Positions 10,749-57,755 of a stretch of 64,000 nt of DNA are shown here, piece by piece (the stretch's first letter is position 1; each line of letters begins with the position of its first letter). This DNA is from Candidatus Poribacteria bacterium. Its GTDB lineage: Bacteria; Poribacteria; WGA-4E; WGA-3G. Location of the stretch: contig JAJDTM010000002.1 of NCBI GenBank assembly GCA_022827185.1, forward strand, positions 1,560 through 65,559. The letters are read 5' to 3'. Position numbers and translations under genes: made by a program. The notes under the pieces are model-generated. The model did not search any database. It saw only the letters and a program-made list of their open reading frames with translations, and was not told the origin of the DNA.

Positions 10749-10749
10749 C

Positions 10750-10920: not shown

Positions 10921-10964
10921 CCGTCTCTTGCGTTGCAGGTTGGCTTGTGCTAAACTGATGTATT

Positions 10965-24701: not shown

Positions 24702-24783
24702 TTATCTAAAAACGAAAAAGGCGCGGTTTTGAACCGCGCCTTGAAATCAATTGATGTGTAAGTTCTAAAGGCATTGCGACGTA

Positions 24784-25647: not shown

Positions 25648-25790
25648 TGTCTCCGACCCAGGCGCGTTTCTTAAGTGTTTTATTTTTTGAGCATTCGTAT
25701 TTCGGAAACTGGCATAGACATCCCTTTGCGACTTAAGACAGGTTCTATTGTAAAAAGGTTCTGTTTAATTTGACTGAAGAAGTCGCAACA

Positions 25791-32351: not shown

Positions 32352-32358
32352 TTTTATT

Positions 32359-33024: not shown

Positions 33025-33469
33025 AAAAGGCTGTATCAACGGTATTGATTTACTTTCGTGCACATTTTTTATAGCAGGTGTTGCTTGCAAACAACGCAAA
33101 CAAAGATTTGACATTTTCTCAAAAATGTGGTTCAATTAAAGTGTCAGTTGGACAGGAATAGCATCACGTGCATCTCTGCACGTGTCCTGTCCACCGAATG
33201 CTATCGGTAGACTGGCCCTGACGTACCTACAAGAGTGGCACTCTTCAGCCAACGGAAATTGTCAATATATGGGGTTGTCCTCAGCCTTTTCATAAGAAAT
33301 GTTCTCCGGATGCCATTGTGTCAAGTTTAGGTAGAATCTTCTTGTGAGAAGTGCCATTGTTTGTGTTAGAAGTTGAATGTATCACGGAGCTTTTCTAAAA
33401 ACTTTATCTTGCGAGGTTCGCTAAAGAATGCGCTTTGTGGATTGAAGAAACGATAGACTGAGGTGAAAT

Positions 33470-35387: not shown

Positions 35388-36161
35388 ATGGCGCAAGTTG
35401 TCCCTTTAAGATACGATACTGCATTTAAGAAAGCGTTCGGTCAACCCGAGATTTTTTGTCAATTTGCCGAAGACGTTTTAGGTATCAAATTCCATACCGA
35501 TGAGGTGCATCGCGGCTACAAGTTCCTTGAACCTATCGGGCAGGTCGATATTGAATACGATCTGTTTGCTGAGGATCCAGAATCTCGAATTGTGGTTGAG
35601 ATACAACACGTCAGAGAACGCAACTTTCGTGATCGTTCCCGCTATTATCATCGGCAGGTGAAAAATAGCAAGGCGTATCAGTTCGATCGGACAGTTTACA
35701 CGATTGTTGTTTTAACAAGTCCGTATCATGAGGACGAAATCGACTTTAGTGTGGCTATCACAGATTTCAACCTGGTCAACGAATTTAGTCGCAAAGTCGA
35801 TGTCTATCCGCATCAACTTGTATTTGTGGTCCCGCGTATGGTCAACGATAAGACCCCGTCTGGCATTAAAGCGTGGTTGGAACTTGTGTTGGATTCTCTG
35901 GATGGCGAGATAGATGAAAGCCGCTATAGTTCGCCAATTTTCGAGCGGGTGATTGATGCGGTTAAACTTGGCAATATCTCACCGGCGGAGCGCAGGGTAC
36001 TCAAAGATGAAGAGTCTTGGGAAGATACCCTAATAGATGCAAGGCAGCAGGAAAAGGAAACGATTGCACGCGCAATGATTAGTGAAGGATTAAGCACCGA
36101 GGTCATCGCAAGAACAACGGGAATTCCAGAAGCAGACATCGAAAAACTAAGGCAATCCTAA
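35388..36161 (+). CDS. Rpn/YhgA-like PD-(D/E)XK nuclease family protein (putative transposase)
   Basis: N-terminal RYDTAFKKAFG and C-terminal helix IARAMISEGLSTEVIARTTGIPEADIEKL are characteristic of the Rpn/TIGR01784 family. Confidence 0.55.
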   Translation: MAQVVPLRYDTAFKKAFGQPEIFCQFAEDVLGIKFHTDEVHRGYKFLEPIGQVDIEYDLFAEDPESRIVVEIQHVRERNFRDRSRYYHRQVKNSKAYQFDRTVYTIVVLTSPYHEDEIDFSVAITDFNLVNEFSRKVDVYPHQLVFVVPRMVNDKTPSGIKAWLELVLDSLDGEIDESRYSSPIFERVIDAVKLGNISPAERRVLKDEESWEDTLIDARQQEKETIARAMISEGLSTEVIARTTGIPEADIEKLRQS

Positions 36162-43064: not shown

Positions 43065-45602
43065 TTGGAAGGACACCTCGTGGAAAAAGAAAATGATGTT
43101 CAACTGATTCAAAGAATATTATCAGGCGATGAAGCAGCGTTTGATGTCTTGGTCCAAAGGCACCAGAAGAGTGTGCACGCCTTGGCGTGGCGGAAGATCG
43201 GCGATTTCCATGATGCTGAGGAGATTACACAGGACACATTCTTTCAGGTATACAAAAAACTCCCGACACTCACGGACCCTTATAAATTCGCTGGATGGCT
43301 GTATGTCATCACAAATCGGCTTTGTATTGATCGGATGCGGCAGAAAAATCTTACGATACAATCGTTGGAGGACACACCTGTGGAAGAAGTTGAAAAATCT
43401 TCTTATACCCATCACGTATCGGAACAACGGCATACAGAAATCACCGAGCGTCGCCGTGCTATCGTCAAAAAACTTCTTGAAAAACTCCCAGAGAGTGAAC
43501 GGACAGTTATGATCCTCCATTATCTCGGCGAAATGACGGTGAAAGAGATTAGCAAGTTCCTGGGTGTCTCTGCAAACGCAATTCATAACCGGTTGTATCG
43601 GGCACGAAAGCGGTTACAAGAGGAAGAAGCATTCCTTATTCAAGAAGTTCTCAGCAGCGTGCAAATACCAACGAGTGTAGGTCAAAACATTATGCAGCGG
43701 GTCGCTGACATAAAACTCACGCCGCAAACAACGCCAAAACCCGTTATTCCGTGGATCGCTTTCGGTACCGCTTTCCTTCTGCTCGCCTTACTCTTTGGCA
43801 CGAGCAATCAATACCTCACCCGTTTTCAGAGACCCTATAGTTTCGAGGCGGCATCTGAACCGACCATTGCTATCATTGACGCACCCGTCGTTCTTGAGAC
43901 AGACGCGAAACCCGCACTGCGAAGTCAAGTTGGACAGGATACCGCCTTAAATCAAAGAACTGGTGCAGGCTTACATGGATCTGAAACTGTCTCAACAACC
44001 GAGTTACCGATGCAGTCAGAAAATATTGAGGCATGGATGCCAGATGAAAATCTACGTCGGGCTATCAAATCTGAACTCAAACTTGGCGATATTCCGCTCG
44101 AGATAGCACATCTCCAGCAGCTCGAACGGTTACTCAGTATTGATGGCGGCATAGAAAGTATTGTGGGTTTAGAACACGCTGTTAATCTTAAATTTCTACA
44201 TCTTGCGCCCAACAAAATCTCGGATCTCACACCACTCGCAAACCTACACAACCTTCGGACACTGAAACTCTATCTCAACAGACTCGTAGACGTTTCACCC
44301 CTTGCGGGATTAGTAGGTTTAGAGACTTTGCATCTACAAAATAACAGGATCGTTGACATCTCACCCCTTGCCGGACTCGTCAACCTAAGGGATTTACAAC
44401 TCAATGGCAATCACATCGAATATTTTTCACCGCTCGCCGGATTAACAAAACTTCAGGTACTTAGGATTAACGACAACAGAGGCATCGATATTTCATCTGT
44501 CCCGACATCCAGTCTGACGGAATTTCTGTATGATCCGACCTTTAATATCCCAGAGATTCCGAACCGTGACCGGATCATGGCTCGCCAGTATCCATCCGTT
44601 TTCGCAGCTTGGCATAACATCATCAATCTACCGACGCTCTCATGGGACGAAAGATTAGTCTATCACGACTTGTGTTTCTCTAATCCTATGTTCGGGCTTC
44701 ATTGGCGGTGGACTCCTACAAGCATGAAAATCTCTGGGAATTTTCGGACAGCAAAGCAACAGCGAGATACGATGCTCAAAGAGAATCCAAATATGATTTT
44801 TCTCGTCGGGATTTATCACTATGGTACACAAGATACATTCGTTCAGCAGGCTGTTGAAGTTGCCAAATGTGGCATCTATGATGGTATCTTTTTAAATTGG
44901 TGGCAAGGCGATAGAGTTGATGCGAAAGTTGCTATACTGCAGAAAATTCGTGAAGTGGTTAGAGATGATTTTCTCATTATCGTCAACGGACTTCGCTCTA
45001 AAACTCCACACTTAGCTCCGTATGTCAACGGCATATTCATGAAAACGAGACGGTACCATCCACAGGGTTACATCCATACCGAACTTCAAGAGATTGAAAG
45101 TGCTTTGCTATGGTCAGAGAAGAATCTTCGATCTCCACAGATTAATTCCTTAGAGGGTTGGGGGCTCGCTGAAGAACCTCTGGATGCCCCACTTAACCAG
45201 CAATGGATGCGGGTCTTTACAACCTTGAGTTTAACGCATTCTGACGGCTATGTTTCGTATGTAACGGGGATTTCATCGTTAACCCACACACATCATTATC
45301 CCATTTGGGAAGGACATTCCGACGAACACGCACAAGGAAAACTACACGATCATACGCATCAGCACTACTGGTATGATTTCTGGGACGCCGATCTCGGTGA
45401 GCCAGTAGGTGGAAAAGGACAGTTCTACCGCGGTTGCGCTGGATTATTCATCCGCGAGTTTACCAACGGATGGGTCGTCTATAACCGCAGTGGAGAAGCA
45501 CAGCAGATCCAGTTGCCGAGGCAAGCCACCAGTGTCGCGAGCGGTATCACCAGCACATCACACACTGTCCCTGATTTAGACGGTGAGATCTTTGTAAAAT
45601 AG
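43065..45602 (+). CDS. Single-chain fusion: ECF sigma factor, one TM helix, LRR region and a roughly 300-aa conserved extracytoplasmic domain (domain X)
   Basis: Sigma-70 region 2 (DAEEITQDTFFQVYKKL) and region 4 (ERTVMILHYLGEMTVKEISKFLGVSANAIHNRLYRARKRL). TM helix VIPWIAFGTAFLLLALLFGT. LRRs of the 22-aa LxxLxLxxNxIxDIxPLAGL type. The C-terminal domain is homologous to those in 46676..47878 and 48186..50744. Likely start is GTG 43080. Confidence 0.75.
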   Translation: MEGHLVEKENDVQLIQRILSGDEAAFDVLVQRHQKSVHALAWRKIGDFHDAEEITQDTFFQVYKKLPTLTDPYKFAGWLYVITNRLCIDRMRQKNLTIQSLEDTPVEEVEKSSYTHHVSEQRHTEITERRRAIVKKLLEKLPESERTVMILHYLGEMTVKEISKFLGVSANAIHNRLYRARKRLQEEEAFLIQEVLSSVQIPTSVGQNIMQRVADIKLTPQTTPKPVIPWIAFGTAFLLLALLFGTSNQYLTRFQRPYSFEAASEPTIAIIDAPVVLETDAKPALRSQVGQDTALNQRTGAGLHGSETVSTTELPMQSENIEAWMPDENLRRAIKSELKLGDIPLEIAHLQQLERLLSIDGGIESIVGLEHAVNLKFLHLAPNKISDLTPLANLHNLRTLKLYLNRLVDVSPLAGLVGLETLHLQNNRIVDISPLAGLVNLRDLQLNGNHIEYFSPLAGLTKLQVLRINDNRGIDISSVPTSSLTEFLYDPTFNIPEIPNRDRIMARQYPSVFAAWHNIINLPTLSWDERLVYHDLCFSNPMFGLHWRWTPTSMKISGNFRTAKQQRDTMLKENPNMIFLVGIYHYGTQDTFVQQAVEVAKCGIYDGIFLNWWQGDRVDAKVAILQKIREVVRDDFLIIVNGLRSKTPHLAPYVNGIFMKTRRYHPQGYIHTELQEIESALLWSEKNLRSPQINSLEGWGLAEEPLDAPLNQQWMRVFTTLSLTHSDGYVSYVTGISSLTHTHHYPIWEGHSDEHAQGKLHDHTHQHYWYDFWDADLGEPVGGKGQFYRGCAGLFIREFTNGWVVYNRSGEAQQIQLPRQATSVASGITSTSHTVPDLDGEIFVK

Positions 45603-45611
45603 GCACATCGC

Positions 45612-45665
45612 CTGCGGATGTCAACGGCGATGGTGTTGATCCGTGACCTCGTCGCCATCGAAAAT
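45612..45665 (+). pseudogene. Frame-shifted dockerin remnant just 3' of the ECF-fusion stop
   Basis: gatgtcaacggcgatggtgtt encodes DVNGDGV, then a frame break, then DLVAIENN. This resembles the [20 protein letters not shown] dockerin repeats of neighbouring genes. Confidence 0.5.
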
Positions 45666-45721
45666 AATTTGGCGGAGAGACAAGCCAATTCTTACTACTT
45701 ATATGGAGAAGAATATGCCTT

Positions 45722-46567
45722 ATGAAAATTAATGGATTCATATCTACAATTATATTGACCGCATTGCTACTGATTGCCACACTCGGAGGCATCACACACG
45801 CCCAAGACGAAGAAGACTGGCTGCCGGATCCGAACCTCCGGCAGGCTATCCGTGAAGCACTCGATATCCCTGATGAGATACCGATACATCCTGGAGACAT
45901 GGAAGGATTACATGGCCTTCGCTTAATAGAAATAGAACACGATATTAGGAGTTTAAGAGGACTTGAGTATGCCGTGAATCTTAAATTCTTGGTTATCGAC
46001 AGAAGTCAACTCTCAAATTTAACGCCACTGGCGGGGCTTAAGAACTTAGAATTTTTGGTTATTGTTAGAAGTGAAATCTCAGATTTAACGCCCCTTACGG
46101 GACTCAAGAATTTACGGGACTTAAAGTTGCGTGAGAATCGCATCACGGATATTACACCCCTTGCAGGATTGGTAAACTTAGAGTTGCTGGTATTGACCCG
46201 GAATCAAATTGTGGATATAACACCGCTCGCAGGATTGATAAACCTACGACGCTTACAATTGAATCATAACCAGGTAGAAGATATTTCACCACTTCGTAGG
46301 TTGGTGAACCTACAACACTTGCAATTGCAACATAACCAGATCGTAGACATTTCACCGCTTCGCGGGTTGTTATCCCTCAAAGTGTTGAACCTCGGAGACA
46401 ATCCTATTACAGACCTTACACCCATTTACGGACTTGTCGGGATAGAAGCATTAGAGATCCAAGAGATACCTATTGACTTTGAAGAACTTCAGATACTGAA
46501 TCCAGTAGACCGTGTTGTTTGCAATATAGAAAGATCCCCCATACTGCCTCGGATTGAAAACATTTAG
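45722..46567 (+). CDS. Secreted LRR protein, the N-terminal part of a gene interrupted by an in-frame TAG
   Basis: Signal peptide. LRRs homologous to the LRR block of the 43065 fusion. The ORF ends at TAG 46565-46567, and the same frame continues into the next ORF. Confidence 0.6.
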   Translation: MKINGFISTIILTALLLIATLGGITHAQDEEDWLPDPNLRQAIREALDIPDEIPIHPGDMEGLHGLRLIEIEHDIRSLRGLEYAVNLKFLVIDRSQLSNLTPLAGLKNLEFLVIVRSEISDLTPLTGLKNLRDLKLRENRITDITPLAGLVNLELLVLTRNQIVDITPLAGLINLRRLQLNHNQVEDISPLRRLVNLQHLQLQHNQIVDISPLRGLLSLKVLNLGDNPITDLTPIYGLVGIEALEIQEIPIDFEELQILNPVDRVVCNIERSPILPRIENI

Positions 46568-46675
46568 TATCCGTCTATTTTTCAAGCGTGTGGGCTTATT
46601 GTCAACCGTCCGGAACTCTCGTGGGTAGAGCAATTAGCATCCCACGATCTGTTTTTCTGCCGTGGGGAGTTCGGA

Positions 46676-47878
46676 GTGGATTGGATTCAAGCACCAGATC
46701 GCCTGGTTCTCACACTCAGTGAGGCCAAAGTGCGCGCAAAAGAAGGACGCGATCGGAATCCAAATATACTTCTCCTTGCCAGCATAGAATTTTATGGGGC
46801 ATCCCCAGAATCGCCTTATGCACTCAGAGATGAATCGGGAAATGTAATAATAGATCACAAATGGGATGGTGCTTTCGCGGACTTCAGGCATCCTGATATT
46901 CAAAAGAGGTTTATAGAGAAGGCACACGCGATTGCGCGATGCGGGCTTTTTGATGGAATCGCCATAGATCATTGGGGGAAACCTGGACTTGGAGATATGA
47001 CCTTAGAAGAAACTGTTGCCGCAAAAGATCGCATGATACAGGCCATTCGTGATGGTGTCGATGATGATTTCTTGATACTGGTAACGACGACGAACGAGAT
47101 TATTCCGACACAGCATCATGCGGAATATATCAATGGCTTTTTCATGGAAACTATTGAAGGTTATGAGGGCGGTTATACCTACGCAGGACTCGCTCACATC
47201 GAAAACACGCTGCTGTGGGCAGAAAAAAACCTCCGAGAGCCTCAAATAAACTGTTTGGCAGGTAGGGGCGTTAGGAGCGAACTGCTGGATAGTCCGAGAA
47301 ATCTACAATGGATGCGTCTATGGACGACAATGAGTCTGACACATTCTGATGGCTATGTCATGTTTACCATGGGTGGCAACCTTGACCATCCCGCCCACCC
47401 TTTTGAATTTTTGCCAGGTCATGCGGATTGGCATGCACAAGGCAAGCGTCACACTCACCAAAACAGCCACTACTGGTATGATTTCTGGGATGCTCCGCTG
47501 GGTCGTCCGATCGGTGGTGATGAAACCAAAGCACAGTTTTATGAGGATCGCGAGGGGTTGTTTATCCGAGAATTTACTAACGGCTGGGCGGTGTATAATC
47601 GCTCCGGCTCCGAACAACAGATTGAGTTTTCGGAAGAAGTCTCCGGCTGGGACAGTGGGGTGGCGCATCAACGCCAGCATACGTTGGCGGATTTGGATGG
47701 CGAGATTTATTTGAAAGCGGAAACCCCTCCCATTGCGGATGTCAATGGTGACGGGACGGTGAATGTCTTGGATCTGGTTATCGTCGCGAATGCGTTTGGG
47801 GAAGCAGCACCGGATTTGAATGGTGACGGGACGGTGAATGTGTTAGACCTTGTGCTGGTGGCGAATGCGTTTGAGTAG
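46676..47878 (+). CDS. Domain X plus a double-repeat type I dockerin (3' part of the split gene)
   Basis: Homologous to the C-terminal domain of the 43065 and 48186 proteins. Ends [46 protein letters not shown]. Confidence 0.6.
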
Positions 47879-48185
47879 GAAACACGCCAAGTTTTTCGCA
47901 GAAATGACCGATTTTCACTGAAAAATGGTGTTCGTGCGTCTAAAATCACATAGGTAGCAAGTTAGGTTATTCTAAAATGTCGAAACACTTGACGAAACTC
48001 AAGAGACTTGAAAAATATCAGCATTAGAATATTCCTTAAATGCTTCTGCTTAACGATTGCAGAAACCTCGCCCTTTAGGGCGGGGTCTATCACGACTTCA
48101 TTATACCAAAAGGGTTCTGTTTATACAAAAAGTTACGCGATTATTTATCAGAGTCACGTTATACAAACGAATGAGGTAAATCCCT

Positions 48186-50744
48186 ATGAAAATCAAGCCC
48201 TCTTTTTACTACAGTTTCCACCTTCTTTTTCTGATTCTCTATCTCAGTCTTACCCCTGTGCACGCCCAAGACTGGCTCCCTGACCCGGTGTTACGGAAAA
48301 CGATTCGGGAATCTCTGGGTCTATCGGCAAACACACCGCTCACAAAAGACTATATGCAACAACTGATACGTCTTGATGGAAATAACAAAGGCATCACGGA
48401 TCTCAGGGGTTTAGAGTTTGCGACGAACCTAAGAATCCTGCACTTGGGAGGTAATGAAAATAATATCACAGATATCAGTCCGCTTGCCAACTTAACAAAT
48501 CTTGTAGGGCTTCATATCTGGCGTGTTCGGCGTCACGACACGCATCGGGCACCCCTCGACATCCGTCCGCTCGCCAACCTCGTTAACTTAGAGGTGCTCT
48601 CTCTGGAGCGACAGGGACTTTCGGATATAAGCGTGCTTGCGAACCTGACAAAGCTTCATAAGTTAGCACTGACGCACAACAACATCTTGGACTTTAGCCC
48701 GTTAGCAGGATTGACGCATCTGCGGATATTGTGGATAAAAAACAACTGGGGGACGGATTTGAGTCCGCTCAAAGGGTTGAATATTACAGATTTTCGCTAT
48801 GACGAAGTGTGTGATTTCACATCACAAGGGGAGTCCGTCACTGCGCGTGTTGAGAACAGGACGTTTCCGTCGATAGTCGGGCTATTCCCGAAAGGGTCAA
48901 TAGAGGAGATGACCCGGTATGATTTCCATTATGGCACCCATTTCGGATTGTGGTGGAAGCGAACGGAAACCGAGCCGACACACGGCTTAGCGATTCGACG
49001 TTCAGGGGATATGGCGCAGGCGAGAGCGTACCGCCAACAGATGCTCCAACAGAATCCAAACATGTTGTTTTTTGTGGGGGTACCTTTGCTTAATTACAAA
49101 CCTTCCAATGCGGCAACGGCTTTTCCCGCAGATTCTGATTTTTGGCTGCGAGATCGCCAAGGGAATATCATCCAAAATGAGAATGATGCGTGGCTGCTGA
49201 ACATTTTGAACCCAGCGTTACAGGATGTTCAGATTGAAAGAATTGTAGGTTTTGCAAAGTGTGGGATTTTCGATGGTGCGCTGTTAGAAGGATTTACAAA
49301 TCATGGAATTGGTGCTGTGGGCAGCCAGTTTTACCCAGTCGTAACAGATGTGCCGTTAACGGAGGAAGCGATTATTGAGGCGTATCTCCGAATTCTAAGC
49401 GAGGTCCGCGCCCGCGTTCCTGAGGACTTTTTGATCGTCGTCAATGCTACGAGAACCAGACCGACCCGTTATGCGGCATACATCAATGGTAATGTGATGG
49501 AACCGGGTTGGGATTATTCCTACAAAGGACTTGCCGAGATTGAAAGCACTTTACTTTGGTCTGAGGAACATTTCCGGGAACCGCAACTGAATTGGGCACA
49601 AGGGTTTCTTATCACCTCGGAGCCCCCGGAGAGTCCTGGGAACCGTCAACGAATGCGTCTCTTTACAACGATGGGACTCACGCACTCTGATGGCTACATA
49701 AACGTCCATTATCATTCAGCGAAGTGGCAGCGATGGGGAGACATCGCTGAAAATTACTGGTATGACTTCTATGATGCCGACCTCGGCAAGCCGATTGGCA
49801 AAACAGCGCAACGCTGCGACGACTGCGACGGGCTCTTCGTGCGTGAGTTCACCAACGGTTGGGCGGTCTACAACCGGAGCGGCAAAGCACAGACGATCCA
49901 CTTACCCGTCAAAGCCACGGGTGTCGCAAGTGGTATCACAAACACCGAACACATCGTTCCAGATTTAGATGGCGAGATGTATCTGAAACAGGCACCGAGT
50001 GTGAATAGCATCGGCATTGTCACTGTGGTTGAGGTTGCGACCGGTGCGCCAGAGGAACCGGAATCCGAATGGATGCCGGATGCCGCCTTACGCGCAGTAG
50101 TTCGGAAGGAAATGGGACTCCCAACACATATCGCTTTGGAAAAATCCCGCATGCCACAGCTGATACATGTTGATGGAAATAACAAAGGCATCACAGACCT
50201 GACGGGTTTGGAGTTTGCGACGAACCTAAGAATCCTGCACGTCGGGGGGAATAAGAATCAGATAACCGACCTTCGCCCGCTTGCGAACTTGACGATCCTT
50301 GAGCATCTCTATATCTGGCGCACACCTCCAAAAGACCCCGCTTCGGTGAGAGTTCTTGACATCCGTCCGCTCGCCAAGCTCACCAACTTACATGCACTCT
50401 CACTGGCGGGAAACGGGATTACCGATATAGCCCTACTGGCGGGCATGAAGAAGCTCGTCAAACTCATCCTTACAGATAATCGGATTGAAGACTTTAGTCC
50501 GCTGGCTGGGCTGATGAGTTTACGAACGTTGAGGATTCGGAACAACCCCGCCACAGATTTCAGCCCACTTGCCGCTTTACCCCTTATTGAATTTCAACTT
50601 GATGCCGATGTCAACGCCGATGGCTTTGTGAATGTGCTTGACCTCGTTACCGTCGCGAATGCGTTTGGGGAAGCGGCACCCGATCTCAACGGTGATGGCA
50701 TCGTCAATATTCAAGATTTAATTATTGTCGCGAATGCGTTTTGA
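48186..50744 (+). CDS. Secreted protein: LRR, domain X, LRR and a C-terminal dockerin
   Basis: Signal peptide LFLILYLSLTPVHAQD. Two LRR blocks. Domain X motifs ([47 protein letters not shown]). Dockerin [45 protein letters not shown]. Confidence 0.75.
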   Translation: MKIKPSFYYSFHLLFLILYLSLTPVHAQDWLPDPVLRKTIRESLGLSANTPLTKDYMQQLIRLDGNNKGITDLRGLEFATNLRILHLGGNENNITDISPLANLTNLVGLHIWRVRRHDTHRAPLDIRPLANLVNLEVLSLERQGLSDISVLANLTKLHKLALTHNNILDFSPLAGLTHLRILWIKNNWGTDLSPLKGLNITDFRYDEVCDFTSQGESVTARVENRTFPSIVGLFPKGSIEEMTRYDFHYGTHFGLWWKRTETEPTHGLAIRRSGDMAQARAYRQQMLQQNPNMLFFVGVPLLNYKPSNAATAFPADSDFWLRDRQGNIIQNENDAWLLNILNPALQDVQIERIVGFAKCGIFDGALLEGFTNHGIGAVGSQFYPVVTDVPLTEEAIIEAYLRILSEVRARVPEDFLIVVNATRTRPTRYAAYINGNVMEPGWDYSYKGLAEIESTLLWSEEHFREPQLNWAQGFLITSEPPESPGNRQRMRLFTTMGLTHSDGYINVHYHSAKWQRWGDIAENYWYDFYDADLGKPIGKTAQRCDDCDGLFVREFTNGWAVYNRSGKAQTIHLPVKATGVASGITNTEHIVPDLDGEMYLKQAPSVNSIGIVTVVEVATGAPEEPESEWMPDAALRAVVRKEMGLPTHIALEKSRMPQLIHVDGNNKGITDLTGLEFATNLRILHVGGNKNQITDLRPLANLTILEHLYIWRTPPKDPASVRVLDIRPLAKLTNLHALSLAGNGITDIALLAGMKKLVKLILTDNRIEDFSPLAGLMSLRTLRIRNNPATDFSPLAALPLIEFQLDADVNADGFVNVLDLVTVANAFGEAAPDLNGDGIVNIQDLIIVANAF

Positions 50745-50965
50745 AATGGAGATTATATCTTATACTATGACAATCAAAGAAATATATCGTAAATCATTGT
50801 GGTTTCAGTTGCTCCTCGCGTCGGTTGTGGGCATGCTTGTCTATAATGCGTTTACCTATAACTTGAGAATTAAGAATTTACACGACTGCTGCCAAAATGC
50901 CAGCGTGGTTGCAAACCATCTCCTTTGTGAATGGCAGACCAGCAGTAGAAACGGAGATAAACTAA

Positions 50966-53080
50966 ATGCAACTAACTAAGAAACAAAACATTTTTATTTA
51001 CTTACTCATCTTTTGTGCGACACTATTCTTCGTATTTCCACTGATAACAAGTGCACAAACTGTTAACATTCCTGACGCGAATCTTCGCGAAGCAATCAAT
51101 GAGGCACTCGGTAAAGCATCAAATGCCCAGGTTACATTGAAGGAAATAGTGACGTTAACCCGCCTTACTGCGAATAACAGAGGTATCAGCGATTTAACAG
51201 GACTTGAAGTTGCGACAGGATTGGAGAGCGTAGAACTCCAGCATAATCAAATATCCGACTTATCCCCGCTCGCGGGGTTGATGAAACTGCGTGTTATACG
51301 GATGGGCAATAACCTTATATTTGATTTATCCCCGGTCGCAGGTTTAATCAACTTGGCAAGATTAGATATCTGGGAGAATTTGATTTCCGATTTGTCCCCG
51401 GTCGCAGGTTTAACCAACTTACTATCAATAAGTTTCGGGAGTAATTCGGTATTTGACTTATCACCCTTGGCGGGGTTAAGGAAGCTTGAGAGGATAAATA
51501 TGAGCCAAAACCCGCCAGCAGACCTCTCGCCCCTTTCAAAAATAATTGGTTTGACAGGTTTTCATTCTTGGGGCACCCCTATATTAGACCTCGCGCCTTT
51601 GGCGGAATTACCAAAACTCAGCGTCATAGATATCTGCGGGGGCGAGATATCGGACCTCTCCGCTTTAGCGAACGCGACAGGTTTGAAGGAACTGTATTTT
51701 GCTGGCAATCAGATCACGGACGTATCGCCGTTGGTGGGCTTAACAAATTTGACGAGACTGAATTTTGCAGAAAATGAAATATCGGACGTGTCACCACTTG
51801 CTGGATTAACCAACTTGACATGGATACGGATTAACCACAATCCAATATCCGATCTATCGCCTTTAGAAGGGTTAGGTATACCTATTGTTCACCATAATAC
51901 CCCGGCATTTCCACCGGGCGGTCCGAAAATCGAAGGACCATGGTTATGGGTACTTGTACCGGGGGAGCGTATTGGTGGTGGAGATTTGCTGGCAGAAGCG
52001 ACGGGTGGCACAGCGACAGAGGAGAAGGTTGCTACTGTTGGTGCTGCAGAGGGAAAGTCTGTTGGAGACAATGTTTGGGTAGCCGATAACATTACCGCGG
52101 TGGGACGCAATAACATCGGTGAAATGCTGAAACGCCAAGGCGTGGGAAACGACGGAGTCGTCTACGGTTCCACCACCTTGGAGTCACCACGAGAACAGGA
52201 AACAAAAATGTTCGTCGGCGCGCATGATGGTGTTGAAGTCTGGCTCAACGGGGCACTCATTCACCAGAAATCTGGTGGACATTGGGCGGAGGGTTACCAC
52301 ACCTTTTTTCCCGTTACGCTCAACGAAGGAACAAATGTGTTGTTAGTTGCTCTTGACAACCACCACGTTGATCAGTGGCGGGCATTTTTTGGATTTGACG
52401 TTGACACAGAATATACGGTAAATTCTCCGATTTCCCGAGCTCCATCTGAAATACCTGCTTATGATGTCAATGAGGATGGGCAAATCAGTATTCTGGATCT
52501 GATTCTGGTAGGTCAAGACTTGGGAAAAGCAAAGCCCACCAACGCGCGAACAGATGTGAATGGCGATGGAACTGTTAGTATCTCGGACCTCGTCCTTGTG
52601 GCACAACATCTCGGCGAAATAACAGGAATTCCTGCCTCGCCTTCCCCCTACACCTTACGCAGCATGGGGTTAGACGCGGCAACAGTCCACACGTGGATAG
52701 CACTTGCCGAGATAGAAAATGATGGCTCGCTCGTCTTCAAGCAAGCGATAGCGAATCTTCAACGGCTTTTAGCGTTGTTGATGCCCGAAAGGACAGCATT
52801 GCTTGTGAACTATCCGAATCCGTTTAACCCAGAGACATGGATACCCTACCAACTTGCTGAACCTGCCAAGGTCACTATACACATTTATGCGATGAGCGGT
52901 GCTTTGGTCCGGAAGTTAGATTTAGGACATCAGGCTGCTGGTATCTATAGTGAAAAGAACCGTGCAGCGTATTGGGATGGTCGCAACCAACTTGGAGAAC
53001 CTGTAGCGAGTGGTGTGTATTTCTACACGTTCACTACTGGCGACTTTACGGCGACGCGAAAAATGGTGATAAGGAAGTAG
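50966..53080 (+). CDS. Secreted protein: LRR, a roughly 180-aa unknown domain (domain Y), a dockerin and a T9SS-type C-terminal sorting domain
   Basis: Signal peptide. About 12 LRRs. Domain Y (GPWLWVLVPG...KSVGDNVW...SPREQETKMF). Dockerin DVNEDGQISILDL...[41 protein letters not shown]...VYFYTFTTGDFTATRKMVIRK. Confidence 0.75.
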   Translation: MQLTKKQNIFIYLLIFCATLFFVFPLITSAQTVNIPDANLREAINEALGKASNAQVTLKEIVTLTRLTANNRGISDLTGLEVATGLESVELQHNQISDLSPLAGLMKLRVIRMGNNLIFDLSPVAGLINLARLDIWENLISDLSPVAGLTNLLSISFGSNSVFDLSPLAGLRKLERINMSQNPPADLSPLSKIIGLTGFHSWGTPILDLAPLAELPKLSVIDICGGEISDLSALANATGLKELYFAGNQITDVSPLVGLTNLTRLNFAENEISDVSPLAGLTNLTWIRINHNPISDLSPLEGLGIPIVHHNTPAFPPGGPKIEGPWLWVLVPGERIGGGDLLAEATGGTATEEKVATVGAAEGKSVGDNVWVADNITAVGRNNIGEMLKRQGVGNDGVVYGSTTLESPREQETKMFVGAHDGVEVWLNGALIHQKSGGHWAEGYHTFFPVTLNEGTNVLLVALDNHHVDQWRAFFGFDVDTEYTVNSPISRAPSEIPAYDVNEDGQISILDLILVGQDLGKAKPTNARTDVNGDGTVSISDLVLVAQHLGEITGIPASPSPYTLRSMGLDAATVHTWIALAEIENDGSLVFKQAIANLQRLLALLMPERTALLVNYPNPFNPETWIPYQLAEPAKVTIHIYAMSGALVRKLDLGHQAAGIYSEKNRAAYWDGRNQLGEPVASGVYFYTFTTGDFTATRKMVIRK

Positions 53081-53117
53081 GTTGTCGCACTTTCAACCGA
53101 TAGTTAGGAGATTAACC

Positions 53118-56100
53118 ATGAGAATTAGTAAATACCTTTATCTGACAGTATTAATATTTATCGTATTAGGATTTGGAACCGCATCTGCGCAGCAGGATCT
53201 CGCGCAAGAGGCATACACTATCCTTCAAAAGAATTGTTCGCTATGTCATGGAGAACACGGCTCCTTTACCGAGGATTTGGTGCTTGAATACACATCACTC
53301 ATCGGGAATGGGGTTATTGTCCCTGGAAATCCTAATGCTTCGGAGTTCTATAAACGATTAATTGAGAATACACCCGAAAAACCGCGAATGCCGTGGGGAC
53401 AGCCTGCGTTGTCAGCGGATGCGCTTGAGACGATTCGTCAGTGGATTGCAGCGGGTGCACCGAATTGGGAGGTGCAATATGATGTCAACTTCATTACGAT
53501 GGATGCGATGCTTTCGGTGATTGAAGATCACGTCGCGTCGCTTTCGGCATTTGATCGTCCGTCCGCTCGCTACTTCACGCTGACGCATCTCTATAACGCT
53601 GGTGGAAGTCCTGAGGCACTTGATGCCTATCGGCGTGCACTCTCGAAGTTGGTGAATAGTCTCTCCTGGGGGTTTGAAGTGATCAAGCCAGAACCGATTG
53701 ACGAACAAGAGATGATCTTTTATATTGATTTGCGCCACTATGAGTGGGATAGAAACGAAGCGTGGACGCAGATTGAACGGGAATATCCCTACAGCATTGA
53801 ATTTGATTCGGAGACACAAGCGGGTCTGCACGAAAAACTGACGAATTTACGTACAGAAATGGACTGCGAAGTGCCGTTTGTCTATGTGGATTGGTTCCTT
53901 GCTAATGCGTCGTTACCACCGCTGTACCACGATATTCTGGACCTGCCAGAAACGGATCAGGAATTAGAGGAGCAACTGGGAGTCAATGTGACGCGAAATA
54001 TCAACAATGCTCCCGGGGTTCACGTCTGGCGTGCGGGTTTCCTCAAGTCGGGTGTGTCAGGGTACAACCGTGTTGTGGAACGGCACACCTCCGACTATGG
54101 TGCGTATTGGAAAAGCTACGACTTTGCGGGGGATTCGGACGTTCAGAATATTTTTATACATCCGCTGACTTTTAGACACGACGGTGGGGAGGTCGTGTTC
54201 CATCTGCCGAACGGTTTGCAAGGGTATTATATCTCTGATGCGTCTGGGAATCGGATAAATGAGGCACCAACGACGATCGTATCCAACCCAGCGGCAAGCA
54301 ATCCTGCCGTGCGCAATGGTCTCTCTTGTATCGGTTGCCACACAGAAGGCATGAAAACGTTTGAAGATGAGGTGCGTGCGGAGATTATGCTGCGGTTCCC
54401 TGAGGGACCGGTGAAGGATCAGGGATTGCGTCTGTATGTGGAACAATCAAAGATGGATGCGCTTGTGGCGAGGGACACAGCTCGTTACAGGGGAGCACTT
54501 GAAAAGACGGGTGGTGTGTTTGGTGGTACGGTTGAACCGGTACATCGGTTCTATGAGGAGTTTCAACGTCCTGTTGAGGCTGCACACGCTGCGGCTGCTG
54601 TCGGTTTAGAGACAGAGATGTTCCGTCAAGAGATTCGAGATAAACAGCGTTTACGGGACTTAGGTTTGGCGGGGCTATTGGAGGATAGGGGTGTGAGTCG
54701 GGATACATGGACCTCCAACTTTCCCGAAGTGATTTCGGCGCTGCATTCTCCCGACGATACAACAACACAGCCGGTCGATCCAGAAACTGACCTACGTCCT
54801 GGTGATTTAGTCTCTATTCCTGATCCGAACCTTCGTGCTGTGATAGAAAGGTTGCTCGACAAAGCCCCAGGTGCTTTGATTACGGCGGCGGATATGGCAA
54901 GGTTGACGCGGATTGTTGCCGATGATGCTGGGATTAGTAATTTGACGGGACTTGAGGCGGCAACGCAGTTGGAACGCATAGAATTTCGTCGGAATTCGAT
55001 ATCCGATTTATCTCCACTGAGAGGCTTAATCCGACTCAATAACATCAAGCTCCGGGGGAATCGGATAACCGATGTATCACCGCTTGCTGACTTAGTTCGT
55101 GTGGATTGGTTAGGACTTGAGGATAACGAGATAACAGATTTATCTCCGCTGAAGGGATTAACCAGATTAAACGGGATAGGGATTTCAGGCAACCCAATAT
55201 CCGATGTATCACCGCTTGCAAACTTGACCAGTTTAGAAGGCATCAACGCTTGGCGCACACCTATCTCGGATTTCTCATCCTTGGCAAAATTAACGAGATT
55301 CAGGTGGATAGGATTTGGTGATGATAAGTCGATATCAGCACTTCCATCACTGAAGGGATTGAAAAGTTTGAGACGGTTGGAAATTAACAACTGTAGCATC
55401 TCGGATCTCTCCGGATTGGCGGAATTGACACAGTTGGAATGGTTAGGATTGAATAATAACCAGATATCGGATATATCTCCATTGCGAAATTTAAGGGGTT
55501 TAGAACATCTGAATCTTAATGCTAACATTATCGAAGATGTATCGCCGCTTGCGAAGTTAACAAAGTTAAAACTTCTACATCTTGTGAACAACATTATCTC
55601 GGATGTATCGCCGCTTGCAGGATTAACTAACTTGGAACGGTTAGACCTCCGCAACAATGCGATATCTGACTTTTCACCTTTGGAAGGATTATTGGAGGAG
55701 ACATTTGTCAGAATAGAAGGTAACACGGGTGTTCTCCGGCGAGGAGCTCCAAAGATACAAGGGCCATGGTTGTGGGTGCTCGTGCCTGTGCCCGGGTCTG
55801 ATGCCTTCCGTAACATAGATTTGCTTGCACGAGCAAGTAATGGAGATATAACCGAGCGGGAGATCGCTACAAACGGTGCGACAGAAGGGAAGTCTGTCGG
55901 TGATAACGTCTGGTTTTCCGAGAAAATATCTACGGATAGGAACAACATCAGAACCATGCTGGGTGCCCTCGGTATGTTAGAAGAGGGCAGTCGCTCGAAT
56001 CTCGTCTACGGTTCGCTCACCCTTGATTCACCACGAGAACAACAGACAAAGATGTTTGCTGGGAGCGATGATCTGCATAAAGTCTGGTTCAATGGACAGT

Positions 56101-57755
56101 TGGTTAGCGAAGCTGTCCACGGAGGGACAAGTGGTGATTACCAGGAATCTTTCCGTGTTACGTTGAAGCAAGGAAAAAATGTGTTATTAGTTGCAATATA
56201 TGATTATGGGGGTGGATGGGGAGGACATTTTGGGTTTGCGCCTGATGCTGAATATACGGTCTTATCCCCTGACACCAGATTCTCCTTTTCCACAGCGGCG
56301 ACGCGAATTAAAGTTGGCGATAGGTTCACTGTTCAGTTCAAAACAAAAAACATTTCCGACTTAGCGGGATGGCGATCTGATATTACATTTGATCCCGCAG
56401 TGCTAAAAGTCAATAACGTCCGCGAGGGTAGTTTCCTGAAACAAGGTGGTGGACGCACCCACTTCTTGAAAGGCACGATTGATAATACGATGGGTAGAAT
56501 CGCCGATGTCGGTTCTGCACGGATCTCTGAAGGTGGAGTTAGCGGTGAAGGTGCCCTGTTGTCAATTACATTCACGGCAAAGGTGAATGGTGAGAGCCGA
56601 TTGTCACTACGAAAATTTCAAGCTGGTTCCAGTACGGGTGATGCAATTTCTGATCGACCCCCTGATATGATTATTACTGTCGAGGATCCGTCGTCCTTAG
56701 ATGTAAGTGATGGCCCATTTTCCCTTTCTACGGATGTAACACCTGTTCGCCTTGGTAATACCTTTAACCTTCTTCTCAAAGCGGAAGATGTTACGGATTT
56801 AGCGGGATGGCAGACTGATATTGCGTTTGACCCCGATGTGCTTGAAACCGTTGAGGTGAACGAAGGCGATTTTCTGAAGGCGGAAGGCGGGGATACCTTC
56901 TTTTTTCAAGGCGCGATTGATAACACGGCAGGTAAAATTACAGGTCTCAGCGCAGCGAAGTTGAAGGGCGGTGGTAACGGCGCAGGTATGCTACTATTGG
57001 TTACATTCAAGGCGAAGGCTGTCGGGGAAACACGGGTGACACTTAGCAATTTCTTTGCTGGCTCCAGCAGCGGCGAAACTATCTCTTCAGAAGTTCCCGA
57101 AATTAGGATCACTATTGAGGATCGCGCGTTTTCTGCTTCGGATGTCAATCAGGACGGTCGAGTGAACGTTCAGGATCTAATCGTGGTTGCACAACATTTA
57201 GGTGCTGATGCGTCTGTCAACCGCCGAGCGGATGTCAATGGCGATGGAACTATTAACGTTTTGGACATCATCGTTATCGCACAAAATTTAGGTGAATCAA
57301 CAGCGGCTGCGCCTTCCAATGTTGCTGCTATAGACAGTTTAGAATTATATCCAGCAATGGTTCAGGCATGGATAGCGGAGGCAGAGGCTAAGAATGACGA
57401 TTCGATTGCCTTCCGACAGGGTATCGAAAACCTTCAACGACTTTTAGCGTCGCTGCTTCCTGAAAAGACAGTGTTGCTGCCGAACTATCCGAACCCGTTC
57501 AATCCCGAAACATGGATACCCTATCATCTTGCTGAAGCTGCGGATGTGACAGTGCATATCTATGCTACCGATGGGGTCTCGGTTCGGACGTTGGCGTTAG
57601 GGCATCAGGCTGCTGGCACCTATGAGCGTCGTAGCCGTGCGGTGTATTGGGACGGCAAAAACGAGGTCGGTGAGCCTGTCGCGAGTGGTGTCTATTTTTA
57701 TACCCTAACGGCAGGTGATTTCACTGCTACGCGGAAACTGTTGATACGGAAATAG
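53118..57755 (+). CDS. Giant secreted scaffold-like protein: PSCyt1-like CxxCH domain, a second CxxCH, LRR, domain Y, two cohesin-like modules, a dockerin and a T9SS-type CTD
   Basis: ATG 53118 with aggag RBS and signal peptide. CSLCH at about 53235 followed by ...PRMPWGQPALSADALETIRQWIAAGAP, the PSCyt1 pattern. CIGCH at about 54325. LRRs 54820-55700. Domain Y 55740-56280. Cohesin-like beta-sandwich modules at about 56290-56690 and 56700-57120 (DLAGW..DI.FDP.VL). Dockerin at 57130-57300. CTD at 57480-57755. The track ORF starts at TTG 53082, one base after the previous stop. Confidence 0.75.
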   Translation: MRISKYLYLTVLIFIVLGFGTASAQQDLAQEAYTILQKNCSLCHGEHGSFTEDLVLEYTSLIGNGVIVPGNPNASEFYKRLIENTPEKPRMPWGQPALSADALETIRQWIAAGAPNWEVQYDVNFITMDAMLSVIEDHVASLSAFDRPSARYFTLTHLYNAGGSPEALDAYRRALSKLVNSLSWGFEVIKPEPIDEQEMIFYIDLRHYEWDRNEAWTQIEREYPYSIEFDSETQAGLHEKLTNLRTEMDCEVPFVYVDWFLANASLPPLYHDILDLPETDQELEEQLGVNVTRNINNAPGVHVWRAGFLKSGVSGYNRVVERHTSDYGAYWKSYDFAGDSDVQNIFIHPLTFRHDGGEVVFHLPNGLQGYYISDASGNRINEAPTTIVSNPAASNPAVRNGLSCIGCHTEGMKTFEDEVRAEIMLRFPEGPVKDQGLRLYVEQSKMDALVARDTARYRGALEKTGGVFGGTVEPVHRFYEEFQRPVEAAHAAAAVGLETEMFRQEIRDKQRLRDLGLAGLLEDRGVSRDTWTSNFPEVISALHSPDDTTTQPVDPETDLRPGDLVSIPDPNLRAVIERLLDKAPGALITAADMARLTRIVADDAGISNLTGLEAATQLERIEFRRNSISDLSPLRGLIRLNNIKLRGNRITDVSPLADLVRVDWLGLEDNEITDLSPLKGLTRLNGIGISGNPISDVSPLANLTSLEGINAWRTPISDFSSLAKLTRFRWIGFGDDKSISALPSLKGLKSLRRLEINNCSISDLSGLAELTQLEWLGLNNNQISDISPLRNLRGLEHLNLNANIIEDVSPLAKLTKLKLLHLVNNIISDVSPLAGLTNLERLDLRNNAISDFSPLEGLLEETFVRIEGNTGVLRRGAPKIQGPWLWVLVPVPGSDAFRNIDLLARASNGDITEREIATNGATEGKSVGDNVWFSEKISTDRNNIRTMLGALGMLEEGSRSNLVYGSLTLDSPREQQTKMFAGSDDLHKVWFNGQLVSEAVHGGTSGDYQESFRVTLKQGKNVLLVAIYDYGGGWGGHFGFAPDAEYTVLSPDTRFSFSTAATRIKVGDRFTVQFKTKNISDLAGWRSDITFDPAVLKVNNVREGSFLKQGGGRTHFLKGTIDNTMGRIADVGSARISEGGVSGEGALLSITFTAKVNGESRLSLRKFQAGSSTGDAISDRPPDMIITVEDPSSLDVSDGPFSLSTDVTPVRLGNTFNLLLKAEDVTDLAGWQTDIAFDPDVLETVEVNEGDFLKAEGGDTFFFQGAIDNTAGKITGLSAAKLKGGGNGAGMLLLVTFKAKAVGETRVTLSNFFAGSSSGETISSEVPEIRITIEDRAFSASDVNQDGRVNVQDLIVVAQHLGADASVNRRADVNGDGTINVLDIIVIAQNLGESTAAAPSNVAAIDSLELYPAMVQAWIAEAEAKNDDSIAFRQGIENLQRLLASLLPEKTVLLPNYPNPFNPETWIPYHLAEAADVTVHIYATDGVSVRTLALGHQAAGTYERRSRAVYWDGKNEVGEPVASGVYFYTLTAGDFTATRKLLIRK

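Follow-up and report, generated by a model that had tools for sequence, protein, structure and literature searches.

A predicted two-haem head on an LRR-cohesin-dockerin protein of Candidatus Poribacteria

Introduction

PF07635 is the 'Planctomycete cytochrome C' domain of PSCyt1/PSCyt2/PSD1 (DUF1549/DUF1553) proteins. Among the dihaem proteins compared below, MauG acts on a protein substrate. For the way in which sponge symbionts deal with their host, the candidates usually named are 'eukaryote-like' repeat proteins such as those with LRRs. The T9SS is, to our knowledge, established for the Bacteroidota/FCB group and not for Poribacteria. In PVC bacteria, PSCyt1 has been described in fusion with WD40 and other interaction domains (PMC3542564).

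Here, a gene is described that was found in a 64-kb stretch of DNA, the whole of which was analysed and is termed the window. The best overall explanation, which we consider about evenly balanced between right and wrong, is that it encodes a secreted surface protein of a sponge-associated Candidatus Poribacteria bacterium, with a two-haem unit as its N-terminal 'head'.

Results

The open reading frame at 53118..57755 (+) in the ORF list encodes a 1545-aa secreted multidomain protein and contains exactly the sequences quoted in a preliminary description of this DNA. A TTG at 53082 and an ATG at 53118 share the common end at 57755 (+). Position 53118 is the likely start codon, given that an AGGAG lies 8 nt 5' of it, that homologues start at the equivalent Met, and that a Sec signal peptide then follows. 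This peptide, read from the sequence, comprises residues 1–24 (53118..53189, +; MRISKYLYLTVLIFIVLGFGTASA, ending in GTASA and followed by QQ) and has no lipobox Cys; the hydrophobic N-terminus is kept across the homologue alignment.

Numbered from this ATG, the motifs CSLCH (residues 40–44; 53235..53249, +) and CIGCH (residues 404–408; 54327..54341, +) are 364 residues apart, in agreement with the spacing of about 360 aa given earlier, and both are invariant in 224/224 distant homologues. They are the only CxxCH motifs in ORFs of ≥100 aa in all six frames of the window and contain four of the six Cys residues of the protein; 0.0004 such motifs would be expected by chance from its composition.

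Haem domain 1 (residues 25–120; 53190..53477, +) was assigned as a class-I, PSCyt1-type cytochrome c domain on the basis of PF07635, a family profile and the AF2 model, in which its fold is helical. PF07635 scored 22.7 bits with the full protein and 25.6 bits with the N-terminal 578 aa, a narrow margin above the gathering cut-off of 22 for the window protein itself; the same domain was found in 38 of 52 distant homologues (best E-value 9.4e-10). Against solved class-I cytochromes the family profile matched FoxE (5mab, 1.9e-8) and c552 (Ks_3357, 7o38, 5.6e-6), and more weakly CcoP (1e-4) and cytochrome c6 (7e-4). The alignment with c552 pairs query residues 42–123 with residues 2–83 of the chain, i.e. 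the whole domain of ~85 residues, and all similarity to solved cytochromes is confined to residues 40–125. The PSCyt1-like N-terminal haem domain proposed in the preliminary description is thus upheld. C40, C43, H44, M91 and P92 are kept without exception in the 224 distant homologues. His44 is the presumed proximal ligand of haem 1, and Met91, which together with Pro92 lies inside 'PRMPWG' (53388..53393, +) in a segment that the family profile aligns with the 'RMP' of both FoxE haem domains, is its presumed sixth ligand. Fatty acid cis/trans isomerase CTI (PF06934) was rejected as an assignment (13.4 bits, cut-off 25); the match covers only positions 77–115 of a profile of ~690 positions, which correspond to its cytochrome part.

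It is very improbable that the product is not a haem protein at all, be it because the CxxCH motifs serve to bind some other metal or to form redox-active disulfides, or because the organism is unable to attach haem c. Haem binding is predicted from sequence, and Pfam and NCBIfam scans of all large ORFs detected no cytochrome c maturation genes in the window; but 64 kb is far too small to judge their absence, each motif has an invariant His after its second Cys, and the similarity to solved c-type cytochromes spans the whole of the domain around motif 1, Met ligand included. The WWD motif, sought by regular expression, was found neither in the window nor in 1.4 Mb of poribacterial loci, together far too small a sample for this to carry weight.

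Haem domain 2 (residues 125–545; 53490..54752, +) is an unnamed alpha/beta domain delimited by conservation and the AF2 model. Pfam and NCBIfam scans yielded no model for it, a single-sequence phmmer search against PDB sequences returned only noise, Foldseek against the PDB gave no match (best E-value 2.3), and no characterised homologue was found. The AF2 model, computed without cofactors from a 78-sequence alignment spanning phyla, is one compact, confident fold (pLDDT 92.6, pTM 0.88), with a five-stranded sheet (residues 303–373) flanked by helices and an all-helical subdomain (residues 419–542). It superseded an unusable model (pLDDT 50.6) based on 26 close poribacterial homologues only. 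A PSCyt2 (PF07583) or PSD1 (PF07587) identity of domain 2 was rejected, as neither matched even at E≤10 and hhalign of the family profile against one PSCyt2/PSD1 protein gave a probability of 0.8%. Of the HMM searches suggested in the preliminary description, the one with PSCyt1 hence succeeded, but those with PSCyt2 and PSD did not, and the proposed kinship with DUF1549/DUF1553 proteins was abandoned.

In the model of domain 2, a short helix (residues 402–407) contains part of CxxCH motif 2. The neighbouring Met412 was considered as a ligand; it is kept in just 140 of the 224 homologues and is therefore none. About 45 positions of the domain are ≥97% conserved, and many of these are polar or charged (R151, N180, D204, R206, D258, Y270, R305, R318, E321, R322, H323, Y330, D335, E358, Y370, R379, D453 and R528), a set which exceeds the needs of a simple electron carrier. 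Its densest conserved polar block is the motif 'NRVVERH' (residues 317–323; 54066..54086, +), in which N317, R318, E321, R322 and H323 are each ≥97% conserved. His323, present in 220/224 homologues, might, as a guess from this pattern, be a distal or catalytic residue of haem 2.

Both parts of residues 25–545 behave as one conserved unit of ~520 residues. Domains 1 and 2 are conserved together in 131/131 full-length representatives, with constant spacing of the motifs. The preliminary description had spoken of separate haem-binding modules; two CxxCH motifs are indeed present, but they belong to a single unit of ~520 aa, and its larger domain is unnamed. Proteins with this unit form at least 1,500 clusters at 50% identity; they come from Poribacteria, Planctomycetota, Acidobacteriota and further phyla. 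The unit is always preceded by a signal peptide or TM helix and is therefore extracytoplasmic, where haem c gets attached. Outside Poribacteria it is combined with TPR, FGE-sulfatase or WD40 domains and also, across a membrane helix, with Ser/Thr kinase or FHA domains. Most homologues pair it with binding modules that lack a signalling output (TPR, FGE-sulfatase, WD40, LRR, NPCBM, HEAT), which fits a layout of catalytic head plus targeting domain. Among stand-alone homologues (Blastocatellia, a deltaproteobacterial MAG and others) no conserved gene neighbour pointing to a substrate was found. One stand-alone homologue adjoins a PSCyt2/PSD1 and DUF1501 pair, an arrangement that was not repeated in other neighbourhoods; beside the scaffold gene of the window there is no DUF1501 partner gene.

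In the window protein the two-haem unit is followed, on the same polypeptide, by LRRs, two cohesins, a dockerin and a T9SS-type C-terminal domain. The internalin-like LRRs (residues 567–875; 54816..55742, +) matched LRR_4 (1.3e-36) and LRR_8 (5e-13) and, in part, NCBIfam internalin models. An unnamed beta-rich domain (residues 876–1054; 55743..56279, +; 'GAPKIQGPWLWVLVP...') is common to this protein, the upstream gene 50966-53080 and 86 poribacterial homologues and resembles only weakly Glyco_hydro_2_N-like models. Two tandem cohesins (residues 1055–1190 and 1201–1335; 56280..57122, +) were detected with PF00963 in two stretches (69.6 bits, cut-off 24.1; internal repeat alignment score 332). 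They are followed by a type-I dockerin (residues 1341–1391; 57138..57290, +; PF00404, 36.5 bits, cut-off 22.9) with two Ca-binding 'DVNxDGxxN' repeats. The C-terminal sorting domain (residues 1457–1543; 57486..57746, +) is of T9SS type A/FlgD-Ig-like type, as TIGR04183 (27.1 bits, cut-off 23) and FlgD_ig (35.2, cut-off 27) matched above their cut-offs; Pfam Por_Secre_tail stayed below its own (14.3 vs 27). T9SS machinery (PorK/L/M/N, Sov/SprA, PorU, PorV) was not seen within the 64-kb window.

The preliminary description had also raised extracellular electron handling, which is unlikely because a protein of 1545 aa has only two haems and lacks a multihaem chain. In a conduit, the cohesin-dockerin assembly would string cytochromes together as a path for respiratory electrons beyond the cell. 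Predicted export, two c-type haems and an Fe(II) oxidase, FoxE, as the best solved match of haem domain 1 would suit such a role, which we nevertheless hold to be highly improbable: ~1000 residues of non-redox domains separate the two haems from the next copy, multihaem packing is lacking, and no porin-cytochrome genes are present within the window. The MtrC/MtrF-like model PF22113 was insignificant (13.4 bits, cut-off 30; E=0.057), so that membership of the MtrC/OmcA-type multihaem cytochromes was rejected. Moreover, other phyla pair the unit with TPR, FGE and WD40 rather than with respiratory modules.

The complete chain of two-haem unit, LRR, beta domain, cohesin, dockerin and T9SS-type C-terminal domain was present in 70 of the 93 poribacterial genes examined that bear the unit, and an assembly artefact as the source of the fusion is ruled out because these 70 independent genes share the full architecture. 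The domain combination which had been called unusual is accordingly real with respect to LRR, cohesin, dockerin and sorting domain, but it is the standard form of an expanded multi-copy family, often arranged in tandem, and not a one-off. Complete poribacterial chromosomes on which the family occurs include OZ241378.1, OZ246979.1 and OY764073.1. Locus L001 carries a split form (545+272+459+251 aa) that looks like the result of frameshifts in that assembly. In the literature covered, nothing relevant was found that links Poribacteria to cytochrome c or its biogenesis, to dockerin/cohesin or to T9SS. Median identities among the poribacterial paralogues are 64% for the two-haem unit, 46% for the LRRs, 50% for the beta domain, 54% for the cohesin and 56% for the dockerin; the C-terminal domain is the most conserved part among the homologues (median 76%).

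These values bear on whether the haems might be structural cofactors of an adhesin-like tip that binds a host or matrix ligand without redox chemistry. The remainder of the protein does consist of interaction modules (LRR, cohesin, dockerin), and expansion by tandem copies is often seen in surface adhesins. However, a ligand-binding tip under diversification would be expected to show the reverse of what is seen here, a conserved two-haem unit next to variable LRRs. Class-I cytochrome domains with His/Met ligation typically serve electron transfer, and the same head is found in free-living soil and water phyla. A purely structural role is therefore distinctly unlikely in our opinion.

Upstream on the same strand lies a gene cluster (43065..53080, +) whose products, as annotated by Pfam, NCBIfam and TM scans, are likely to be partner proteins of the scaffold: (i) an ECF sigma factor joined via one TM helix to LRRs (43065-45602, +), 8 kb upstream of the scaffold gene; (ii) an LRR protein (45722-46567, +); (iii) a GHL15-dockerin protein (46676-47878, +); (iv) an LRR-GHL15-LRR-dockerin protein (48186-50744, +); (v) an LRR-beta domain-dockerin-CTD protein (50966-53080, +), whose gene is separated from the scaffold gene by 37 nt only. 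The last three encode dockerins, and a T9SS-type tail is present on the neighbouring gene and also on the first ORF of the window.

Redox sensing by the two-haem unit is possible, as suggested by its fusion to kinase or FHA domains in other phyla. As a sensor head, haem 2 would bind a gas or report the redox state, and a conformational change would be passed to partner proteins, which in Poribacteria could be contacted through LRRs and cohesin-dockerin pairs, the route possibly ending at the ECF sigma-TM-LRR protein. The encoding of this protein in the same gene cluster and the Pkinase-TM-module(-FGE) and FHA-TM-module proteins of other phyla, with the unit outside the membrane, favour sensing. 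Yet most family members, all poribacterial ones included, have no signalling output domain, and Pfam, Foldseek and the family profile revealed no homology to known haem sensor domains. The kinase fusions are weak evidence because planctomycete kinases carry many kinds of extracytoplasmic domain, and kinase and FHA fusions across a membrane helix fit a sensor as well as an enzyme. On balance we regard a sensor head as unlikely.

Discussion

The reading which we prefer, and to which we give an even chance, is that the head is the redox-active two-haem working end of a surface-assembled protein, with haem 1 as relay and haem 2 as working site. The protein would be exported by Sec, after which haem would be attached in the periplasm: haem 1 at Cys40/Cys43 of the small class-I PSCyt1-type domain, with His44 and Met91 as axial ligands, and haem 2 at Cys404/Cys407/His408 inside the 420-residue alpha/beta domain. 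Folded and haem-loaded, it would then cross the outer membrane by means of the T9SS-type C-terminal domain, and a surface complex would be built from its cohesins and dockerin and from the dockerins on the products of neighbouring genes; in this complex the LRR region could bind a partner. Haem 1 (His/Met) would pass electrons, and haem 2 would be a catalytic or ligand-binding site in the large domain, a division of labour analogous to that in MauG-type dihaem peroxidases and cytochrome cd1. Catalysis on a bound substrate is only slightly preferred over pure sensing.

A more far-reaching version, which we consider improbable, is that residues 125–545 form a new haem-c enzyme fold that is displayed in many copies on a self-assembling cohesin-dockerin/LRR lattice at the symbiont-sponge interface. 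If so, the enzyme might, for example, remove host-derived peroxide or nitric oxide or oxidatively modify an LRR-held host protein, and the lattice would be a redox counterpart of the cellulosome.

Across a whole multi-copy family of poribacterial LRR proteins, a strongly conserved two-haem unit forms the cap, and the proteins have cohesin-dockerin assembly parts of their own; the cap provides this family with testable chemistry beyond 'binding'. The second domain, of 420 residues, is the defining part of a large haem-c family that has no name and is found in several phyla; a confident predicted fold and the lack of a solved relative make it a target for defining a family and for work on its structure and biochemistry. 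The Ser/Thr kinase and FHA fusions suggest that the unit may in addition be an unrecognised extracytoplasmic signalling input.

With PSCyt1 (PF07635) proteins the head shares the N-terminal place after a signal peptide, the CxxCH at the start of the domain and the pattern '...PG.P..S.....RMP....W...GA', and the HMM scores above its cut-off. It differs from PSCyt1/PSCyt2/PSD1 proteins in that the unnamed 420-aa domain with a haem site of its own follows PSCyt1. The best solved sequence match is FoxE, the dihaem Fe(II) oxidase of Rhodobacter ferrooxidans SW2; the distal half of haem domain 1, with its segment 'PGDP..S...RMP...WI..GA', can be aligned to each of the two FoxE haem domains, and FoxE, like the head, has two c-type haems outside the cytoplasm. 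It consists, however, of two tandem small class-I domains in 291 aa, whereas in the head such a domain holds haem 1 alone, haem 2 being housed in a large domain unrelated to it, with no similarity beyond residues 40–125.

Dihaem cytochrome c peroxidases and MauG resemble the head in having two c-type haems, of which one is a His/Met electron-transfer haem and the second is held in a separate domain. The protein-binding partner domains would here allow a MauG-like action on a protein substrate, which we use as a working analogy and not as a claim of membership. Membership of the CCP/MauG family (PF03150) was rejected, since there was no Pfam match at E≤10 and no sequence or Foldseek similarity to solved structures; moreover, the haem spacing in that family is about 140 as opposed to 364 residues, and its fold is other than that of domain 2.

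With T9SS type-A CTD cargo of Bacteroidota the protein has in common a C-terminal beta-sandwich of ~90 residues that scores above the TIGR04183 cut-off; in the literature and databases searched, no example of a c-type cytochrome as T9SS cargo was found. The protein resembles cellulosome scaffoldins of Clostridia and Ruminococcus in that a single polypeptide holds cohesins, here two, as well as a type-I dockerin, and in that putative glycoside-hydrolase-like (GHL15) proteins that bear dockerins are encoded next door. The HMM scores above cut-off and the dockerin-bearing partners nearby point to cohesin-dockerin assembly, the binding itself being predicted. In contrast to the cellulosome, the host is a Gram-negative-type sponge symbiont, CBM and canonical cellulase genes are absent, anchoring would be by a T9SS-type C-terminal domain and not by SLH or sortase, and the scaffold carries LRRs and a dihaem head.

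Domain layout of the dihaem protein

The ORF of the dihaem protein extends on the plus strand from 53082 (TTG) or 53118 (ATG) to 57755. Translation of the 1545-aa product probably begins at the ATG at 53118, judging from an AGGAG located 8 nt 5' of it, the equivalent Met at which homologues start, and the typical Sec signal peptide that follows directly (MRISKYLYLTVLIFIVLGFGTASA, then QQ). Numbered from this Met, CSLCH and CIGCH occupy residues 40-44 and 404-408, where the preliminary description had placed them. Four of the six cysteines in the protein lie within these two motifs, its composition predicts 0.0004 CxxCH motifs by chance, and among ORFs of at least 100 aa in all six frames of the 64-kb window, no other has such a motif.

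Pfam and NCBIfam scans and alignment of internal repeats were used to establish the domain order: signal peptide (residues 1-24), PSCyt1-type cytochrome c (25-120; Pfam), a region without family match that carries the second CxxCH (125-545), internalin-like LRRs (567-875), an unnamed beta-rich domain common to the upstream gene (876-1054), two cohesins (1055-1190 and 1201-1335), a type-I dockerin (1341-1391) and a C-terminal domain (CTD; 1457-1543). Cohesins, dockerin and T9SS-type CTD pass curated cut-offs, the CTD with 27.1 bits against the NCBIfam T9SS type-A sorting model (cut-off 23). Given this order and the CTD score, the combination of haem motifs, LRR, cohesin, dockerin and T9SS-type CTD in one protein, first proposed from the sequence alone, is real.

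The beta-rich domain (about 180 aa; 'GPKIEGPWLWVLVP...') is found at 55743-56279 (+) and in gene 50966-53080 (+; ORF residues ~310-490). It is placed between the LRRs and a cohesin or dockerin in the two proteins, as it is in 86 homologues from Poribacteria. Pfam gave nothing for it beyond insignificant Glyco_hydro_2_N-like matches.

The two-haem unit

Haem domain 1 (residues 25-120) passes the cut-off of PF07635 (PSCyt1; 22 bits) narrowly, with 22.7 bits for the full protein and 25.6 bits for the N-terminal fragment. Firmer support for the assignment comes from relatives, as 38 of 52 distant homologues match PSCyt1 with E-values down to 9e-10; the PSCyt1-like N-terminus suggested earlier is thus upheld. 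A family profile built from 78 members matched solved class-I cytochromes within residues 40-125 only: both haem domains of FoxE (5mab; 1.9e-8), cytochrome c552 Ks_3357 over its full domain length (5.6e-6), CcoP and several c6 proteins. By these matches haem domain 1 is of the class-I type. Since Met91-Pro92 ('PRMPWG') is invariant and aligned to 'RMP' of FoxE, haem 1 would by homology be a class-I haem with His44/Met91 ligation.

Haem domain 2 (residues 125-545) matched no family of Pfam or NCBIfam even at E<=10, and single-sequence and profile searches of PDB sequences likewise gave no match. Comparison of the family profile with a PSCyt2/PSD1 protein by hhalign (0.8% probability) ruled out that the domain is PSCyt2/PSD1, and the supposed kinship with DUF1549/DUF1553 proteins was not borne out.

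An exhaustive HMMER search covering 1.84 billion representatives returned 5458 clusters (50% identity) at E<1e-3, of which 1533 pass E<1e-30. The best 150 matches form one continuous stretch from about residue 25 to 540 at ~40% identity, and all 131 full-length representatives retain the two CxxCH motifs at a distance of about 360 residues. Conservation was counted in an alignment of 364 sequences, 224 of them distant members. C40, C43, H44, M91, P92, C404, C407 and H408 are identical in all 224, Tyr270 is likewise kept in 224/224, and His323 in 220/224. Met412, which adjoins the second CxxCH, was rejected as haem ligand, being kept in only 140/224. About 45 positions of haem domain 2 are at least 97% conserved; Arg, Glu, Asp, His, Tyr, Asn and Ser account for many of these. 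Strict conservation of both CxxCH motifs across hundreds of poribacterial copies points indirectly to haem attachment.

The PSCyt1 domain and its fusion to interaction domains in PVC bacteria were already known (PMC3542564). The literature and databases searched contained no account of the second haem domain, with its 420 residues, as a family, of its constant pairing with PSCyt1, or of the poribacterial architecture with the head on LRR, cohesin, dockerin and CTD; the literature searched had no relevant mention of Poribacteria together with dockerin. As a c-type cytochrome protein, the dihaem protein has an unnamed main domain and an undescribed architecture. The two-haem unit matters mainly as a well-defined target, not as a solved mechanism.

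The poribacterial family

Searching one genome per GTDB species yielded at least 559 relatives. The best 74 loci, taken for ORF analysis, all belong to Candidatus Poribacteria and contain 93 ORFs with the two-haem unit. Among the matches listed, the closest relative is 89% identical (isolate SB0101, JAGFCB010000098.1). On this basis the source of the window is a poribacterium. The complete order module-LRR-beta domain-cohesin-dockerin-CTD is present in 70 of the 93, most exceptions being cut by contig ends, and also in several 50%-identity cluster representatives. Tandem copies are frequent, with three in a row at one locus (L071), and several loci come from one chromosome (at least six copies on OZ246979.1). 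Because the full architecture recurs in many loci, often in tandem, an assembly artefact was ruled out as the cause of the fusion between head and scaffold.

At L001, a locus on ENA contig ctg717526l (3.57 Mb) of a related poribacterial assembly, four successive ORFs (545+272+459+251 aa) take the place of a single orthologous gene (8001-12632), probably because of frameshift errors in a long-read assembly. Proteins from this assembly, P0003 among them, resemble 'stand-alone' modules without being such.

Median identity of poribacterial homologues to the dihaem protein of the window was 76% for the CTD, 64% for the two-haem unit, 56% for the dockerin, 54% for the cohesin, 50% for the beta domain and 46% for the LRRs. 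Head and sorting signal are the constrained parts, the LRRs the variable one.

Gene neighbourhood

The dihaem gene is the last of a same-strand cluster (43065-57755, +) whose products are an ECF sigma-TM-LRR fusion, an LRR protein, two GHL15-dockerin proteins, an LRR-beta domain-dockerin-CTD protein and the dihaem protein. In the GHL15-dockerin genes (46676-47878 and 48186-50744, both +) hypothetical glycoside hydrolase-like family 15 is fused to dockerin, in the second between two LRR blocks; the cohesins of the dihaem protein are likely to take up their products as cargo.

The ECF sigma fusion that opens this cluster (43065-45602, +) and a second one (61227-63419, +) have a single hydrophobic helix at residues ~219-243, followed by a large C-terminal domain, which carries LRRs in the former and an inactive M16-peptidase-like domain in the latter. 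Both are sigma factors tethered to the membrane, each with an extracytoplasmic part in the same chain. The second is preceded by a gene for a secreted M16-inactive-domain protein (59091-61160, +), of which its C-terminal half is a close paralogue with long identical stretches (e.g. 'VTRFTLSNGIRVV...'). The two look like a duplicated sensor/ligand pair.

At 1-5145 (+) a protein of >1714 aa with cadherin and bacterial Ig domains runs past the window start; it has the same FlgD-Ig/CTD-type tail as the dihaem protein, so that other surface proteins of the genome make use of this sorting CTD as well. A glycogen metabolism cluster (10965-13040, 18041-20638 and 21407-22705, +) encodes a branching-enzyme-like alpha-amylase with CBM48, a DUF3417-type glucan phosphorylase and GlgC; the C-terminus of ORF 15607-17499 (-) is weakly GlgA-like. 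Genes of mobile-element or defence type encode a REP-associated tyrosine transposase-like protein scoring below cut-off (14919-15563, -), an N6/N4 DNA methylase and a PD-(D/E)XK transposase-family nuclease (31536-32351 and 35388-36161, +). The lowest GC of the window (0.40) is at 32001-34000. Two adjoining paralogous ORFs of ~280 aa (24784-25647 and 25791-26633, both -) have no Pfam match and weak GspC-like NCBIfam matches; AT skew around them is strongly negative (-0.23 at 24001-26000).

Occurrence in other phyla and proposed function

Homologues with a named source come from Candidatus Poribacteria, Planctomycetota (including Gemmataceae), Acidobacteriota/Blastocatellia, a deltaproteobacterial MAG and Chthonomonadaceae. 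They are annotated as 'hypothetical protein', 'mono/diheme cytochrome c family protein' or 'c-type cytochrome domain-containing protein', or after the partner domain to which they are fused. Outside Poribacteria the unit is mostly N-terminal and followed by TPR, FGE-sulfatase, WD40, NPCBM, HEAT, TonB_C or periplasmic-binding-protein domains, or in some cases by only a short tail without Pfam match. In a minority, a cytoplasmic Ser/Thr kinase, FHA, DnaJ or polytopic membrane domain precedes a hydrophobic helix and then the unit. Being either N-terminal or behind such a helix, the unit is always extracytoplasmic, which is where haem c attachment takes place. The kinase and FHA fusions would suit a sensor role of the head; most partner domains, however, are binding domains without output, so that catalysis rather than sensing at haem 2 is slightly favoured.

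Stand-alone two-haem genes in other phyla had no shared neighbour at the loci examined. In a single case, absent at the other loci examined, a stand-alone homologue of the dihaem module (L002, 4005-7593 of a Blastocatellia metagenome contig) is in divergent orientation to a neighbouring PSCyt2/PSD1 protein and its DUF1501 partner.

In the proposed mechanism, haem would be attached in the periplasm and the folded protein exported via its CTD; the T9SS of Bacteroidota transports folded cargo. Neither cytochrome c maturation genes nor T9SS components were found in the 64-kb window, and no WWD motif turned up when the window plus 1.4 Mb of poribacterial loci were scanned, a sample too small to carry weight. 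Outside the cell, cohesin-dockerin contacts would join the protein to itself and to neighbouring gene products. The extracellular electron handling envisaged in the preliminary description is unlikely in the form of a respiratory conduit, because 1545 residues carry no more than two haems, the multihaem signature is absent (PF22113, 13.4 bits against a cut-off of 30) and the window lacks porin-cytochrome genes.

In the head, haem 1 would serve as electron relay and haem 2 as working site. This division is suggested by how large haem domain 2 is, by the many polar residues that are invariant in it, and by a parallel with known enzymes. As tests of family membership did not place the head among them, that parallel is functional only: dihaem peroxidases/MauG and cytochrome cd1 combine a small His/Met cytochrome and a second, haem-bearing domain.
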